Shown here: piece after piece, positions 1 to 6,068 of the stretch | Numbering within the stretch: the first letter of the stretch is position 1 | Layout of the letters: each line of letters begins with the position of its first letter | IMG/VR virus record: IMGVR_UViG_3300020030_000051 | Coordinates: 1-6,068 of that record | Direction: 5' to 3' (one strand) | DNA length: 6,068 nucleotides | Source of the DNA: a virus | Made by a program: the position numbers and the translations under genes | The notes under the pieces: generated by a model | Seen by the model: the letters and a program-made list of their open reading frames with translations, nothing else | Database searches by the model: none | Told to the model about the DNA's origin: nothing

Positions 1-111
1 CCAAGGGCGAAGGGCTAAAGCAGACTTAGCAACGTCAGAGCCATTGCGACAAGGATTCTTCTTGTCAAAATAACGACGATTGCGTATCCATAAAGGAGAA
101 GAGCAGGGCAT
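1..111 (-). CDS. Redundant partial copy of the Rep N-terminus (codons 1-37), created by the terminal overlap; not a separate gene
   Basis: The ATG at 109-111 (minus) equals the ATG at 6056-6058. The sequence is the same as 5948-6058 and encodes MPCSSPLWIRNRRYFDKKNPCRNGSDVAKSALALRPW. Confidence 0.85.
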   Translation of the reverse strand, partial: MPCSSPLWIRNRRYFDKKNPCRNGSDVAKSALALRPW

Positions 112-121
112 TAAAATAAGC
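1..121. repeat. Left copy of the exact 121-nt direct terminal repeat (circular-genome redundancy)
   Basis: I compared 1-121 with 5948-6068 base by base and found them identical. The flanks differ (5941-5947 cgacatc; 122 onward tttgaag). Confidence 0.97.
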
Positions 122-311
122 TTTGAAGACAATCAAATCTAATCCTAGGATGATCAAGGCGACAGCGAATAAGATAGTCATTTGCTGGAGTCGCATCGGC
201 AAACCAAGCGATAATAACTCGCTTTCTACCTCTATATGCGCCAATAGAATAGCGATAAGGAGTGCTATTGATGACGGGGGAAAACCTGGGGCGGAAGTCG
301 TAATAATCCAT
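111..311 (-). CDS. Small basic hypothetical protein (66 aa from the first ATG; the ORF track extends it to 440 using a GTG start)
   Basis: The ATG lies at 309-311 (minus). The TAA stop at 111-113 overlaps the Rep ATG as TAATG, which suggests translational coupling. The product is Arg-rich (10 R and 1 K against 6 D). The 312-440 extension starts at GTG and lies in a hairpin-dense, GC-rich stretch, so I prefer the ATG. I recognise no family. Confidence 0.35.
   Translation of the reverse strand: MDYYDFRPRFSPVINSTPYRYSIGAYRGRKRVIIAWFADATPANDYLIRCRLDHPRIRFDCLQSLF
134..141 (-). promoter_or_regulatory. Candidate Bacteroides-type -7 promoter box (TAGATTTG) upstream of Rep
   Basis: The minus strand reads TAGATTTG, an exact TAnnTTTG match, 22 nt upstream of the Rep ATG at 111. 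There is no TTTG at the expected -33 position, so support is weak. Confidence 0.25.
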
Positions 312-331
312 AATCAAAAAAGTAATACTTT

Positions 332-464
332 GCGCTTCGAAAGACGGTACTTTCGAGCGCGAAAACTGTTTCGCTACGCCGCTCGACGGCCTTAACGGCC
401 GGGACGCTTCGCGTCTTCGAGCTCCATGGCTTCGCTTCACGATCTGTATACCGAATAAATTCGG
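332..464 (-). promoter_or_regulatory. Array of six stem-loops; candidate ssDNA origin or regulatory region
   Basis: 332-360: 11 bp with one bulge. 359-374: 6 bp, GCGAAA/TTTCGC. 387-401: 5 GC bp. 403-415: GACGC-GAA-GCGTC on the minus strand. 429-435: GCGAAGC on the minus strand. 451-464: CCGAAT/ATTCGG. The hexamer cgcttc recurs at 333, 405 and 433. Confidence 0.55.
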
Positions 465-477
465 TGAGTTTGAGAGT

Positions 478-512
478 AAAAAAAATCCCAGGGGAGAGCG
501 ACTCCCCTGGGA
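478..512 (-). terminator. Rho-independent terminator for minus-strand transcription
   Basis: Perfect 11-bp GC-rich stem (486-496 pairs with 502-512) and a 5-nt loop. On the minus strand it is followed directly by T8 (A8 at 478-485 on plus). It sits 47 nt downstream of the stop at 559-561. There is no T-run on the plus-strand side. Confidence 0.75.
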
Positions 513-558
513 GTCAACGGCCTAAAGAACTCTACCTCCAAGCGGGCGAGTTACGACT

Positions 559-882
559 TTAGTTCCTTTTCCCTTTTTTTTTCGTCGTGCTTTCATCGCA
601 ATCAAGCTCAAGATTAAACATAAGAACGATGGTATTATCGAAAAACTCGATACTAAAGTCGGGGAGAGTACTGCAGGTACTAATAAGGTCAGAGATTTCC
701 GAGTGACCGACGTAGAGAGAATCGCTAATATCCGAATTCTTTAGATAGGAAGCAACGGGAGAATTCGCAATAGCGTCAAAAGGGATAGAAACAAACTGGC
801 CGTCTTTGACGTGACCTACTTGGACAAGGTCAATTTTAAGAGCCGGGTTAATTCGGCGAATAACAACATGAATCTGTGTCAT
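559..882 (-). CDS. Hypothetical protein, 107 aa from ATG 880-882 (the track's 131-aa version uses a TTG at 954)
   Basis: The ATG lies 11 nt after the stop of the upstream ORF (894-896), which fits the compact layout. The TTG extension would overlap that ORF by 61 nt. The C-terminus is basic (KKKGKRN). No recognisable motifs. Confidence 0.5.
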   Translation of the reverse strand: MTQIHVVIRRINPALKIDLVQVGHVKDGQFVSIPFDAIANSPVASYLKNSDISDSLYVGHSEISDLISTCSTLPDFSIEFFDNTIVLMFNLELDCDESTTKKKGKRN

Positions 883-1300: not shown

Positions 1301-2557
1301 TCACCTTACATAACGACGACTAGATTTCGTAGTGCCAGCGTACCTGCCATCTTTGCCAAAAATTTCCCTACTTTCATCATAATCAACAGGAGTAGGACGT
1401 TTAGTTGTAGCAGCGCCGGCGACAGCAATAGCGCCAACCAAGGCAGTTCTCGCCATGCTATAACCAAAAGCATTTTTGCTAGATCGATTTTGAAACCAGC
1501 GACCCGAAAGATCTTGTTCACCTTCTGAAGCGGCGAGACCCATAAGTTTCTGGTGAATCTGACGACCTGTCATCTTTGTTGTCCTGCCAGTAGGTTTACC
1601 TTTTTCATTAACTTCCGGAACATCGATCACCGAGTCCCAATTAAGATCGAACCACTCGCGAAGATCAGCTAAGTTAACCTTACGTATCTCAGACTCAACA
1701 TCTAAGACATCACCGGAAGCGGCAGATTCATAGGCGGCAGCAAAATCCCGAACAATCTGAGCAGCGTAAACAGCATCAAAGTATTTGTCGTTATACTTCT
1801 TGACCTGATTCGCCTCTTCAACATGTTTCGAATACATGGCAACGTAATCTTGAAACTTATACGTAGCCATAAGATCAGCATATTCAGCATCGGCGGCATG
1901 GATATCAGCCAAAGCACGATTGAGACGGATCAATTCGGAAACATTATCGATATTATGCTCTAAAGACTTCTTCTCTAACTCATCCATCTCCTTTCGCCAG
2001 TCTGCGCTATGAGTGTTGCCTCTCATAAGGTCAGCCTCAGCGTTATCACGATTAGCAGCAGCATCGTTACGGTTAACCGAAGAGCGAGCCATCATATTTT
2101 GCGCAATAGCGGTAGGATCGGTGGCTGCAAAACCGCCAGGAGCAATAGGAGAACTACCCGAAGGGCCGGAGGCGGAAGGCATAGGGGCAGAACCGCCGGA
2201 CATAGTAGCACTCACACCAACACCTGAAGAGCCTAGAACGGCAGCGGGGGTTACACCAGCCTTCGAGTAACGATCAAAGACCTTCGAGGGATCATTGTAG
2301 GCGTTTTCGTAGTCAAATTGTTTCTGCCAATTAGCATAAGAAAGTTCAGATTGCTTCTGCATCTGCTCGAGGGCATATCTTTGCTGGAGAGCCATCTGTT
2401 TTTGCTGAAATCTCCACTGACGACGAGCGTTCATGCCACCAAAAAGTTGGCCTAAAAAACCGTTTATCAAACCGGTAGTGCCAGTAGAAGCAGCGGATTC
2501 GCCAAGGGCGCGACCAAAAGAAGTAGTAGCGGCGGCGGCAGCAATAGGGGCAGGCAT
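1301..2557 (-). CDS. VP2: VP2-like minor capsid / DNA pilot protein (418 aa)
   Basis: Gly/Ala-rich N-terminus, then QKQFDYENAYNDPSKVFDRYSKAGVTPAAVLG, which resembles the conserved N-Y-N-(S/D)-P ... AG-(L/V)-(N/T)-P block of gokushovirus VP2. A Ser/Gly/Pro low-complexity linker and a long helical, coiled-coil-like region follow. Size and position fit a pilot protein. Confidence 0.8.
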   Translation of the reverse strand: MPAPIAAAAATTSFGRALGESAASTGTTGLINGFLGQLFGGMNARRQWRFQQKQMALQQRYALEQMQKQSELSYANWQKQFDYENAYNDPSKVFDRYSKAGVTPAAVLGSSGVGVSATMSGGSAPMPSASGPSGSSPIAPGGFAATDPTAIAQNMMARSSVNRNDAAANRDNAEADLMRGNTHSADWRKEMDELEKKSLEHNIDNVSELIRLNRALADIHAADAEYADLMATYKFQDYVAMYSKHVEEANQVKKYNDKYFDAVYAAQIVRDFAAAYESAASGDVLDVESEIRKVNLADLREWFDLNWDSVIDVPEVNEKGKPTGRTTKMTGRQIHQKLMGLAASEGEQDLSGRWFQNRSSKNAFGYSMARTALVGAIAVAGAATTKRPTPVDYDESREIFGKDGRYAGTTKSSRRYVR

Positions 2558-2750: not shown

Positions 2751-2776
2751 AAATTTAAAAAATTAAAGAACGATAG

Positions 2777-2853
2777 AAAAATGCGCGGCCTCTCCTGCAG
2801 TCGTTACCAATAACCTTCAGCAATTCACGGACTCTTGCAAAAGGGGTCCGCGC
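2777..2853 (-). other. Structured intergenic element: GC clamp enclosing about 59 nt, followed by a T-run on the minus strand; possible terminator or attenuator
   Basis: gcgcgg (2783-2788) pairs with ccgcgc (2848-2853). A competing 7-bp hairpin (2826-2832 with 2846-2852) shares bases with the clamp. On the minus strand the clamp is followed by ATTTTTC (2776-2782). It lies in the 133-nt gap between the 98-aa ORF and the lipoprotein ORF. Confidence 0.35.
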
Positions 2854-2884
2854 ACGTAGCATATATCGTCAAGTAAAGGATATA

Positions 2885-3193: not shown

Positions 3194-4984
3194 TTAACGA
3201 TTAGACAAACGGGTAGCAAACGTCTTGTTCACTAAATTCTTCTTCTGAACAGCATACGAGAGATTCACAAAAAAGTTATCCTCAACGCGCGAGGCAAACG
3301 CCGAATTCACCTGTCCAATGTTAACAAACAGGTTAGCGTAGTACGTATTATAACTTTGCGACAAGACGCGCTGCTGTACCCAATAAGCATAAAGCGGAAT
3401 CTTCGTGTCGGAAGACTGAAAACGGGAAAGCTGGCCTAAAACTTCATCATAGGATGACCTAAATTCATTGAAGCATGGCTCCTGAGCGACCGTGTCGATG
3501 GAAATCGACGACCCTAAACCAAACTGGAAAGACGGAACATCCTGATAACCAATATCATTATAAATGGGGTTAAAATAGTCAGAACCAGTATAATGCAGAT
3601 AATCGGGGTAAACACCAGCCCAGTAATAGATAGGTCGTATACTCAACATATCAATCATATAACCGGGCTCACGAAAATAGTAAGACTGTCGACGACCTAA
3701 TCGATCGTTAAAAGCAATAGCGCCACCCTGCTGTCCCAGAGGACCATTAACGCTCGGACCGGTGAAGTTATTTTGTCCAGCTTGATTCATAACAATCTGC
3801 ACGTTGACAGTCTGAGAAGCACTAAAGAGAAGCTTCGGGCGATCAACATGTTCAATTTTAGAGGCGAAAAACGTCTCAAGCCAATCACTATAACGGCTGC
3901 CTCCAGCGCCGAGAAGGTCCTTGTATTCCTGAAGACGAGAAGCAATGGCCAACTGCGGAATAGTGTTTACTCCTGTCATCGAAACAGCAGAATTAGAGCC
4001 AGTAGGCAATAAACGACTGTAACGATCGGGATTGGAAGGAACAACCGCCATAGGGTGGGCAACAAGGAAAGCGCCGAGAGACGTAATACGCGAGTCAGCA
4101 GCATCGGTAGAAAGTTGACCAGCGGGGCCAGCCTCTGTCAAAACGCCGTTACCGGGATAAGTTTTTGAAACAGGATACCCATTCGAAGACGCGGCGGCCG
4201 TAGCGCCAAGATCGGAAAAGAGTATCTGAAAGTACAAATTACCACGATTATAGGTGTTATTGTTCGAGGAAACTGCAGCCGGGTAAAACTGACTCTCAAA
4301 AAAGGCATCGAGATATTCGAGATTTCCAAAACGCTGCGTAAAAAAAGAACTCTCTTCAGCAAACTGAAAAAGGTTGGGGTATGAACCCGAAGAATTTGAG
4401 ATAGAATACCAAGACGATGGCCAAGCAAAAGAATAAAGGCCCCACTGTGAATAACTGTAATAGTTGCGGACGATATCCCAATAGGCTAAATAAGTATCCG
4501 CGTTACACCAAGAAACAGGGAAAGAAAGCTGAGCCGCCGAAAGATTAGGAGAGACAGGATGATCTGAAGACGTAACGACTGGAATACCCGCGGGAACGAC
4601 ACGCAGCCAACGAAGCAATGAATTGGAATAAGGCATATTGTTGGTCGTAAAAGTATAAGAGTCTGTCGACGATGCCGTAATAAAATTAAGGCTCAAGTCG
4701 TTCATATCAAACTTACTACTATTCGTCCTCATCTCGGGATGATACAACTGAATCGGCACCCAAAAACGGTGAAGCCGAACAGTATAGGGATTGAACGTCG
4801 GAACAGCAAGAGGGTTACTGCGAACATCAATGCCTTGTTCAATAGAAACACGGTCTCGAGCATTAATAAAATCGATTCGCACCGGATATAAAATACCCGG
4901 CGTACACGTAAAGGCCTTGCTCTCAGGGACATCGTAGCGAGAGTAGCCATTAACGGCGTGAGAAATAAAAGGTTGTTTTCCCAT
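3194..4984 (-). CDS. VP1: Major capsid protein VP1 (Microviridae F-protein family), 596 aa
   Basis: The N-terminal block YSRYDVPESKAFTCTPGILYPVRIDFINARDRV ... RLHRFWVPIQL, the central block ASRLQEYKDLLGAGGSRYSDWLETFFASKIEHVDRPKLL (3827-3955) and EPGYMIDMLSIRPIYYW match conserved blocks of microvirus capsid proteins as I know them. Confidence 0.93.
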   Translation of the reverse strand: MGKQPFISHAVNGYSRYDVPESKAFTCTPGILYPVRIDFINARDRVSIEQGIDVRSNPLAVPTFNPYTVRLHRFWVPIQLYHPEMRTNSSKFDMNDLSLNFITASSTDSYTFTTNNMPYSNSLLRWLRVVPAGIPVVTSSDHPVSPNLSAAQLSFPVSWCNADTYLAYWDIVRNYYSYSQWGLYSFAWPSSWYSISNSSGSYPNLFQFAEESSFFTQRFGNLEYLDAFFESQFYPAAVSSNNNTYNRGNLYFQILFSDLGATAAASSNGYPVSKTYPGNGVLTEAGPAGQLSTDAADSRITSLGAFLVAHPMAVVPSNPDRYSRLLPTGSNSAVSMTGVNTIPQLAIASRLQEYKDLLGAGGSRYSDWLETFFASKIEHVDRPKLLFSASQTVNVQIVMNQAGQNNFTGPSVNGPLGQQGGAIAFNDRLGRRQSYYFREPGYMIDMLSIRPIYYWAGVYPDYLHYTGSDYFNPIYNDIGYQDVPSFQFGLGSSISIDTVAQEPCFNEFRSSYDEVLGQLSRFQSSDTKIPLYAYWVQQRVLSQSYNTYYANLFVNIGQVNSAFASRVEDNFFVNLSYAVQKKNLVNKTFATRLSNR

Positions 4985-4987
4985 AAA

Positions 4988-6058
4988 TTAAATAATTAGT
5001 TGAAGTTTGTAATGATCTTGCCAGAATTGGAGAATATCCAAATCTAACCAAGTAGGAGGGTCAAAATCGGGCATCTCGCGAGAGGAGGCAGAAAAGCGCA
5101 TCATCTGTTTCTGTTCCCACGTGTATGCCTCTCTACGGGATACGGAGGATTTGAGATTGAACCGTTCAACACACAAAGAAACAATACGCTTAACCAAAGG
5201 AGACTTGCTAAAACGTGCGTAAGAATCAGCAGCGATAATCGAACGTGAAATTTCGTCTTCTTGTTTAAGATATCTAAGATAGTATCGAGGGATCGCGTAA
5301 TTGTAATTGATACGCTTCTCAAAATCATAATAAGACCACGTCGAAGTACGAGTAGAAGGACGAGGCATATAACCAAGAAAATCACCAACGCCAGCAGATA
5401 CGAATTTTCGCGTATAACGGCGATGTTGGAGGAGACAAGATAAAGACGTAAGTTTTCCATCTAAAATGACATTTTGATTCAATATTTCTGCAGGATCGAA
5501 ATAAATTTGCTTAGTAACATATTTGACAACGTATCGTGCACGCTTGTGCGTGCCTTTCGCAAGCCAAACGAAGCCTAAATCACGGACAGCTGATCTAATT
5601 TCGTTATAAAGACAGTTGGTGCCAAAAAGAAAGCCATGGAAGTGAAGACGCGGCGCCGATCCTGTTTCAGGGTGAGTGCCAAACTCCTGGAAAAATGCAT
5701 GCTTAAAGGAGTGACCAAGGCGGTGTCGAACTCGCTCATTCCATCGCCGGATGAATCTGGAGGGGTCTCGCAGCGCTTCATTGTAATACTTAGGGGATAT
5801 GGTTATCGTGATAAAAATAGCCTGTTGAGACTCAGCCTTACAGCGAGCAAGCTCGCGTTCCAAGCGAACGAACCAGTTATTGCGCTGACGGCGCAAGCAC
5901 TCTTCACACTTGCCGCATGGAACTAAAAGCCACTGACGAGCGACATCCCAAGGGCGAAGGGCTAAAGCAGACTTAGCAACGTCAGAGCCATTGCGACAAG
6001 GATTCTTCTTGTCAAAATAACGACGATTGCGTATCCATAAAGGAGAAGAGCAGGGCAT
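4988..6058 (-). CDS. VP4: Replication initiation protein VP4 (HUH rolling-circle endonuclease, phiX A-like), 356 aa
   Basis: N-terminal Cys cluster (C3, C21, PCGKCEEC at residues 47-54). Motif I AIFITITI. HUH motif PRLHFHGFLF (H-F-H at 5636-5644). Two-tyrosine catalytic motif RYVVKYVTK (Y176 and Y180 at 5519-5533), comparable to YVAKYVNK in phiX174 A. The TAA stop is 3 nt before the capsid ATG. Confidence 0.93.
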   Translation of the reverse strand: MPCSSPLWIRNRRYFDKKNPCRNGSDVAKSALALRPWDVARQWLLVPCGKCEECLRRQRNNWFVRLERELARCKAESQQAIFITITISPKYYNEALRDPSRFIRRWNERVRHRLGHSFKHAFFQEFGTHPETGSAPRLHFHGFLFGTNCLYNEIRSAVRDLGFVWLAKGTHKRARYVVKYVTKQIYFDPAEILNQNVILDGKLTSLSCLLQHRRYTRKFVSAGVGDFLGYMPRPSTRTSTWSYYDFEKRINYNYAIPRYYLRYLKQEDEISRSIIAADSYARFSKSPLVKRIVSLCVERFNLKSSVSRREAYTWEQKQMMRFSASSREMPDFDPPTWLDLDILQFWQDHYKLQLII

Positions 6059-6068
6059 TAAAATAAGC
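5948..6068. repeat. Right copy of the exact 121-nt direct terminal repeat
   Basis: Identical to 1-121. It contains the Rep start codon and the stop codon of the upstream small ORF. Confidence 0.97.

Follow-up and report, generated by a model that had tools for sequence, protein, structure and literature searches.

A stretch of 133 nt in the genome of a gut microvirus, positions 333-465 on the minus strand of the window (the whole 6,068 nt of IMG/VR record IMGVR_UViG_3300020030_000051), forms a conserved, folded and exchangeable cassette, and we infer, with about even confidence, that it is a complementary-strand (single-strand) origin read by the host. Its structure, its covariation, the GNA rule in one of its hairpins, the exchange of the cassette between phages and an orientation tied to strand composition are shown by sequence analysis. 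The original prediction had proposed a candidate ssDNA origin here; the conserved, non-coding structure stands, probably on the packaged strand, the origin role would be a further step, and the terminator included in that prediction is not part of it.

Positions 1-121 of the window are repeated exactly at 5948-6068, giving a circular genome of 5,947 nt, and the Rep gene spans the circular junction of the window. This is a microvirus genome in which the minus strand holds every gene, including several small ORFs beyond those listed below. Among GenBank records its closest relatives, at ~70-80% nucleotide identity, belong to uncultured Microviridae sampled in the faeces of pig, deer and civet. 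The main features, all on the minus strand, are as follows.

4988-6058, minus strand: Rep/VP4 gene (Pfam REP_ORF2-G2P, phrog_942).
3194-4984, minus strand: major capsid protein gene (Phage_F).
2751-2884, minus strand: second intergenic region, flanked by ORFs of 98 aa and 63 aa.
1301-2557, minus strand: pilot protein gene.
882 (ATG) to 559 (stop, TAA), minus strand: 107-aa gene.
522-596, minus strand: small overlapping basic ORF of 24 aa, MKARRKKKGKGTKVVTRPLGGRVL, recognised by third-codon-position variation.
478-512, minus strand: Rho-independent (intrinsic) terminator, with an 11-bp stem (502-512 with 486-496), a 5-nt loop and T8 at 478-485.
450-465, within 444-465, minus strand: hairpin H2, ACCGAA-TTTA-TTCGGT, overlapping GTATACAG (444-451); the 5' edge of the exchangeable cassette.
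368-440, minus strand: three-way-junction domain of 73 nt on an interrupted long stem, from covariation and RNAalifold.
Long stem of that domain, minus strand: pairs 440/368, 439/369, 435/373, 434/374, 430/378, 429/379 and 428/380.
429-435, minus strand: first GCGAAGC, the 5' strand of the long stem, pairing with 373-374 and 378-379.
417-422 with 381-386, minus strand: junction stem.
403-415, minus strand: arm 1, 411-415 with 403-407 and a GAA loop at 408-410 (conserved GCGAAGC).
387-401, minus strand: arm 2, 397-401 with 387-391 and a GTTAA loop at 392-396.
333-361, minus strand: hairpin H7, with a lower stem (359-361 with 333-335), an internal loop, an upper stem (350-356 with 337-343) and the loop TACCGT at 344-349.
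312-332, minus strand: AT-rich spacer AAAGTATTACTTTTTTGATT, separating H7 from the ATG of the 66-aa ORF and varying in sequence and length among relatives.
111-311, minus strand: small ORF of 66 aa (MDYYDFRPRF...), with a conserved ATG at 309-311.

Comparisons were made with three sets of relatives, namely 10 GenBank tails, 56 IMG/VR loci found via the neighbouring 107-aa protein and 89 IMG/VR contigs found via the sequence of the 332-360 hairpin, and with a whole-genome alignment of 58 related genomes. Nearly all of these relatives come from a few related metagenomes and are phylogenetically clustered. The covariation model was scored on 74 distinct type-A sequences (the cassette type of the window), while RNAalifold and the first pair counts used 34.

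The borders of the non-coding region were set by codon-position variation in alignments of relatives. In the 36 nt past the TAA of the 107-aa gene, variation is nearly confined to third positions (entropy 0.17/0.08/0.95 in the frame of the 24-aa ORF), and it is because of this that the ORF at 596-522 is proposed. Its stop, TAG at 522-524, is the true 5' edge of the intergenic region. The 24-aa ORF is unannotated, highly basic and overlaps the end of the 107-aa gene in a different frame, with a run of A10 at 572-581 (minus strand) inside the overlap; its size and charge resemble those of phiX174 J and make it a candidate J-like DNA-packaging protein. On the other side, the stop of the 66-aa ORF overlaps the Rep start as TAATG, and a clear codon periodicity (0.40/0.27/0.88) marks this ORF as a real gene which adjoins the structure and is no part of it. 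It gave no Pfam or PHROG match, and since MG945664, L042 and L045 (L numbers denote individual relatives) lack it or carry a truncated form it appears dispensable. The GTG-extended part of the same frame, 312-440, had been called non-coding, and this proved correct: entropy there is 0.31/0.37/0.26, with no periodicity, as against the values for 111-311. As the 24-aa ORF ends at 522, the 66-aa ORF starts at 311 and 312-440 is aperiodic, the non-coding region is 312-521.

Within this region the hairpin at 486-512, previously counted as part of the origin, is best read as a Rho-independent terminator. Its stem of 11 pairs, 8 of them G-C, lies on the sense strand 10 nt past the TAG at 522-524 and is followed by the T8 run. 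It is the top terminator-like site in a scan of the genome and folds with a z of -6.1; in relatives the stem is kept, both partners having changed in 5 of the pairs and G.T wobbles being frequent, and most relatives have a T-run after it. Together with its T8 it ends the late transcript before the rep operon. The likeness to a Rho-independent terminator covers one of the seven proposed hairpins only, and the cassette downstream has no T-run.

The region was also said to be richer in GC than its surroundings, and it is: GC is 0.547 over 332-512 and 0.602 over 333-440, the genome as a whole having 0.454, and just 1% of equally large windows reach the level of 333-440. Folded as ssDNA, 312-558 reaches -53.2 kcal/mol, far better than shuffled controls at -34.8 +/- 3.5 (z -5.3; 0 of 200 shuffles as good). 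The folding energy of the plus strand is equal (z -5.3), and energy alone therefore cannot tell which strand matters. A motif search of the genome confirmed that GCGAAGC has just two sites, 406-412 and 429-435, on the minus strand in each case. It also placed GAAGCG at 333-338, 405-410 and 433-438 on that strand. Genome-wide, neither motif is above chance: at least 2 matches to GCGAAGC were found in 63 of 200 shuffles, and the 7 genome sites of GAAGCG (5 on the minus strand) were equalled or exceeded in 45 of 200. A scan for sigma-70 promoters found none in 312-520, and Rfam returned only weak sub-threshold matches, to terminator-like sRNAs, and no family match.

Five of the seven consecutive stem-loops first described survive comparison with ~90 relatives. 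Those at 486-512, 451-464 (better 450-465), 403-415, 387-401 and 332-360 (better 333-361) fold as described and are conserved; the one at 359-374 is unsupported and that at 429-435 belongs to the long stem. The 359-374 hairpin was rejected in favour of the long stem, having 88% of its cells paired and no compensatory change. Positions 373-374, in its 5' arm, pair with 434-435, and 368-369, immediately beyond the arm on its 3' side, have 439-440 as partners. The layout that emerges from these comparisons starts with a terminator and a small hairpin, continues with a long stem bearing a three-way junction, and closes with a single invariant hairpin. The hairpins at 387-401 and 403-415 are thus real, not as separate elements, but as the two arms of one junction.

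Support for the junction comes mainly from covariation. In a model of 33 pairs, all 2,442 of 2,442 cells in the 74 type-A sequences are standard pairs, and 8 of the pairs have changed on both sides (for example CG/GC/AU, UA/CG/GC and GC/AU/CG). In controls where the 3' partner was slid by 1-3 columns, only 23-45% of cells pair. RNAalifold independently recovers the same junction structure from 34 sequences. The compensatory changes in relatives that were to be looked for are therefore present, and on this evidence the cluster is a selected nucleic-acid structure. The non-Watson-Crick cells of the type-A structure comprise 6 G.T and 0 A.C, which weakly favours the strand of the gene (T-rich) sense.

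Arm 1 of the junction is of particular interest, as it follows the GNA mini-hairpin rule of Hirao and colleagues, in line with what had been suspected. In such mini-hairpins a C-G pair closes a G-N-A triloop, where a sheared G.A pair fixes the G and the A (PMC13037366) and N is free. Across the 74 sequences the triloop is GAA in 33, GCA in 27, GTA in 8, GGA in 5 and ACA in 1; G and A are thus fixed and N is any of the four bases in 73 of 74, and the closing C-G and the adjoining G-C pair are invariant. A 2026 review by Hirao's group describes mini-hairpins as extraordinarily stable and nuclease-resistant, and places them at the primase origins of G4, St-1 and alpha3, in RSF1010 ssiA (CCGAAGG) and in an N4 ssDNA promoter (PMC13037366). 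The second supposed mini-hairpin, at 429-435, did not hold up as one of a designed pair. GCGAAGC is found there in only 2 of 74 sequences (the window and L115), the others having GTGAAGC or GTGGAGC, and the bases covary with distal 373-374 and 378-380. Where 434 has gone from T to C, 374 has gone from A to G, the pair being U-A in 72 sequences and C-G in the same 2, and this copy of the motif is a by-product of a compensatory substitution.

The two flanking hairpins differ in how they are conserved. In H2, 99% of cells are paired and one pair has gone from A-T to G-C in 16 of 34 sequences. At its edge GGTAT is at least 90% conserved in the 74 sequences, whereas the full 8-mer shows some variation and conservation of GTATATAC is loose; a hairpin followed by GTATATAC is found at the same cassette edge in lineages 2 and 3. 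A role for H2 and GTATACAG as a Rep nick region would be speculative. H7 (TCGAAAGTACCGTCTTTCGAAGCG) is invariant or nearly so in stem and loop among the 74 sequences, ranks sixth for conservation among the 21-nt windows of the genome, folds with a z of -3.4 and keeps ~95% identity across lineages that are unrelated in the rest of their genomes. Invariance of both stem and loop suggests a sequence-specific recognition site. A scan of GTDB genomes for H7, as a way to the host, gave only chance matches: all 12 lay in unrelated, mostly coding context, with ~4 expected by chance. Just 3' of H7, at 322-330 (minus strand), lies AAGTATTAC, which equals the circovirus-type origin nonanucleotide; it was rejected as a nick site since it is not conserved in relatives. 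The signature of ssoA consists of RSB and of CS-6, TAGCGT in a terminal loop. These motifs were not found in the cassette; a CS-6-like TAGCGA at 372-377 was rejected, as it lies in a stem and reads TAACGA in most relatives.

Which strand the cassette works on can be judged from its orientation. In a second lineage (MG945515, which is L011, and the IMG/VR relatives L082, L106, L112 and L125) the entire cassette points the opposite way to all of the genes. At four-fold sites of the coding strand the window's lineage has T at 0.43-0.56 and A at 0.08-0.11; the inverted lineage is an almost exact mirror, with A at 0.41-0.47 and T at 0.07-0.09. Counting genuine cassettes only, the cassette is in gene orientation in 89 genomes with T-rich coding strands and inverted in 5 with A-rich ones, with 0 exceptions in 94, the inversion being a single evolutionary event. 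Matches to H7 in L128 and L150, and to type C in L170 and L176, were set aside as chance matches. In ssDNA phages there is a C-to-T bias on the single-stranded strand (PMC4032129), from which the T-rich strand would be the packaged one. Because orientation tracks the T-rich strand and not gene direction, action in the packaged single strand is the favoured reading, as the original prediction had it. The simplest reading of the inverted lineage is that it packages the antisense strand, the cassette always lying on the packaged strand.

The cassette could then sit in a module that sets replication polarity, and we consider it a tentative possibility, somewhat short of even, that the inverted lineage, perhaps with its whole capsid clade, represents negative-sense Microviridae. 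We know of no description of such viruses. The capsid clade has 131 records in the phage collection, and the 8 relatives sampled from it, with capsids 36-53% identical and from many habitats, all have A-rich coding strands (8 of 8). Over lineage 2 and this wider clade (L183-L196), four-fold A is 0.33-0.67 and T 0.06-0.19. In MG945511, the closest capsid relative, three GNA-triloop hairpins cluster on the T-rich strand between VP2 and VP4. A census of GNA against TNC hairpins in six genomes of the A-rich clade gave sparse and mixed counts, with a clear cluster in MG945511 only.

The intergenic region exists in three interchangeable forms at one site.

Type A (the window): a terminator, a small hairpin, the junction domain and the invariant hairpin.
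Type B: a three-way junction nested in a terminator-like stem, with a T-rich tract after it.
Type C: a long imperfect hairpin of ~100 nt.

No 7- to 9-mer is common to the three types. The arms of the type-B junction are usually both C-GAA-G triloops (ACAGCC-GAA-GGCTGT and CCGC-GAA-GCGG, the first arm having AAC in two relatives), which puts CCGAAGG and CCGCGAAGCGG in a junction equivalent to that of the window. In one type-B relative, MG945790, the outer stem has been swapped for a different sequence with pairing retained. L041 (IMGVR_UViG_3300020030_000162) has an intergenic region of only ~140 nt in which most of the type-C hairpin is cut down to a small one, GAGCC-GTTA-GGCAC; the genome is defective, or else this is a minimal form that still functions. 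The cassette itself never occurs more than once in a genome, and its intergenic position is constant.

Measured over 220 residues, Reps from different types (median identity 0.886, maximum 0.968) are as alike as Reps that both come with type A (median 0.875), so the type of cassette is not coupled to Rep. H7 together with the type-A junction (in L106) or with the type-C core is also found in two other microvirus lineages, at ~95% identity, and in one of these, which has the same H7 alone or with the junction, the Rep is only 29% identical over 156 residues. The region is in this respect an exchangeable, Rep-independent cassette of the sso kind, and the sequences compared give no sign of the co-variation with Rep to be expected of a Rep origin. 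Uncoupling from Rep, sharing across lineages and an invariant H7 together point to a host factor rather than Rep as the probable reader. The third lineage includes L139 (IMGVR_UViG_3300029376_000308, 10,151 nt), integrated in a bacterial contig and flanked by direct dif-like repeats TCATTATGTTAAATT ~5.8 kb apart, like a XerCD-integrated element; H2, the type-C core and H7 lie inside the element, the cassette being ~520 nt from a dif-like repeat.

The complementary-strand origins of G4 and phiX174, and the sso of rolling-circle plasmids, are where the complementary strand is started. For the cassette we infer a similar course of events. The injected strand would become coated by SSB, the very stable folded elements would stay exposed on the coated strand, and a host priming enzyme (primase, a PriA-type primosome or RNA polymerase) would recognise them and lay the primer for complementary-strand synthesis. 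If it is the host and not the phage Rep that reads the cassette, it would therefore be swappable between phages. A stable structure under selection (z -5.3, 8 compensatory pairs) is what such an origin should show, as is a non-coding position on the packaged strand, presuming that strand to be the T-rich one. Homology to a characterised origin was not found, only a 7-nt motif being common with the phiX174 F-G region. Three further points count against an origin of this kind. An H7 that is invariant in sequence could also be read by a phage protein; the inversion in lineage 2 needs the nick site to be inverted as well, which hints at a viral-strand origin in or beside the cassette; and L041 seems to survive with most of its type-C hairpin deleted.

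Comparison with known systems gives both likenesses and differences. Searches of the phage collection gave only uncultured Microviridae, with no match to G4, St-1, alpha3 or phiX174, and no sequence homology came to light with the oric of G4, with the phiX174 primosome assembly site or with ssoA. Like the cassette, the G4-type oric (of G4, St-1, alpha3 and phiK) groups stable hairpins between the genes of a microvirus, on the strand that is packaged, with the mini-hairpins GCGAAAGC or GCGTTAGC where the window's cassette has GACGC-GNA-GCGTC. It differs in having three tandem hairpins instead of a three-way junction and an invariant hairpin, and the cassette showed no sequence similarity to it, has no identified CTG start site, is exchangeable between lineages and probably belongs to a host other than E. 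coli. The ssoA, ssoU and ssoT of plasmids are strand- and orientation-specific, structured, read by the host independently of Rep, and exchanged as cassettes between replicons. The sso of rolling-circle plasmids and ICEs, as well as ssiA and ssiB of RSF1010, share with our cassette that they are strand-specific, structured, Rep-independent and exchanged, and the CCGAAGG mini-hairpin of RSF1010 ssiA (PMC13037366) is also arm 1 of the type-B junction. The cassette lacks the ssoA signature motifs, unlike these systems, and the genome encodes no plasmid primase. The original prediction placed GCGAAGC in the origin region of phiX174, and this was borne out in sequence, GCGAAGC and CCGAAGCGG both lying in the F-G intergenic region, which holds the primosome recognition hairpin for minus-strand initiation (PMC9865509). 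This is again a hairpin region between genes of a microvirus, and type-B relatives have CCGCGAAGCGGTAA; it lies between the capsid and spike genes, whereas the cassette lies before rep, and the alignment is limited to the short motif.

The strongest alternative, which we still regard as unlikely, is that the cassette is or contains the viral-strand origin, with Rep binding H7 or the junction and nicking nearby, for example at the GTATA beside H2, so that the region sets which strand is displaced and packaged. Its location directly upstream of the rep operon would fit, and a stem and loop conserved in sequence, as in H7, is what recognition by a protein would predict. The flipped polarity of lineage 2 is also simplest if nick site and cassette were inverted together, and a hairpin followed by GTATA stands at the cassette edge in three lineages. 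Against this, types A, B and C have no common 8-mer and yet serve Reps up to 96.8% identical, one and the same cassette serves Reps only 29% identical, and GTATATAC is not strictly conserved. A further objection is the second intergenic region, 2751-2884, which is more invariant, lineage-specific and unstructured. This is the most conserved stretch of the genome, with ~125 nt nearly invariant in 58 genomes; it is non-coding, has a folding z of -1.35 and was not seen in lineages 2 and 3. Within it lie CTTTACTTGACGATATAT and CTTTACTTGACGATATATGC (ACTTGA..ATAT), which resemble the phiX174/pC194 nick site. It is thus a better candidate than the cassette for a Rep-specific origin, and could be a Rep nick-site origin or a key promoter. 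In lineage 2 a phiX-like CTTGA..ATA motif was looked for and had no consistent occurrence.

It is quite improbable that the cassette has some other single-strand or host-interface role, such as a signal for packaging or for condensation, a shield against nucleases, or a selfish recombination cassette spreading among co-infecting microviruses. Horizontal exchange among three lineages at ~95% identity, the presence of three alternative cassettes at one site and the nuclease resistance of mini-hairpins (PMC13037366) would suit such a role. A shared packaging signal is made unlikely by capsid and packaging proteins that differ between lineages; the cassette is also always single-copy, in a constant intergenic position and in an orientation strictly tied to the T-rich strand. 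Near H7, lineage 2 has GCGCATAGTAATTATTATG, which resembles E. coli dif. A XerCD/dif-like attachment site beside H7 was rejected, since L139 has its own flanking repeats with the cassette ~520 nt inside the element, and the window has no dif-like site.

Finally, the whole cluster might act as RNA (a compound terminator, a stabiliser of the late-mRNA 3' end, or a 5' leader for the small ORF and rep), as the good intrinsic terminator formed by 486-512 and T8, the terminator-like outer stem around the type-B junction with its T-rich tract, the position immediately upstream of the rep operon, and covariation and G.T wobbles that suit RNA as well as DNA would allow, but this is very improbable given that the lineage 2 cassette is antisense to all genes, that orientation tracks base composition and not transcription, that the type-A cassette lies downstream of a strong terminator and that no Rfam family matches.

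Microviruses are among the commonest gut phages, and outside the phiX174/G4 group we know of no complementary-strand start sites described for them. The 133 nt identified here are a precisely bounded origin candidate supported by covariation, and can be cloned directly. The behaviour of these elements indicates swappable cassettes, like the single-strand origins of plasmids, in which case a small non-coding module would in part govern host range. That cassette orientation goes with synonymous-site composition suggests a cheap way of inferring, from sequence only, the packaged strand of uncultured ssDNA phages, and it raises the possibility of negative-sense microviruses.
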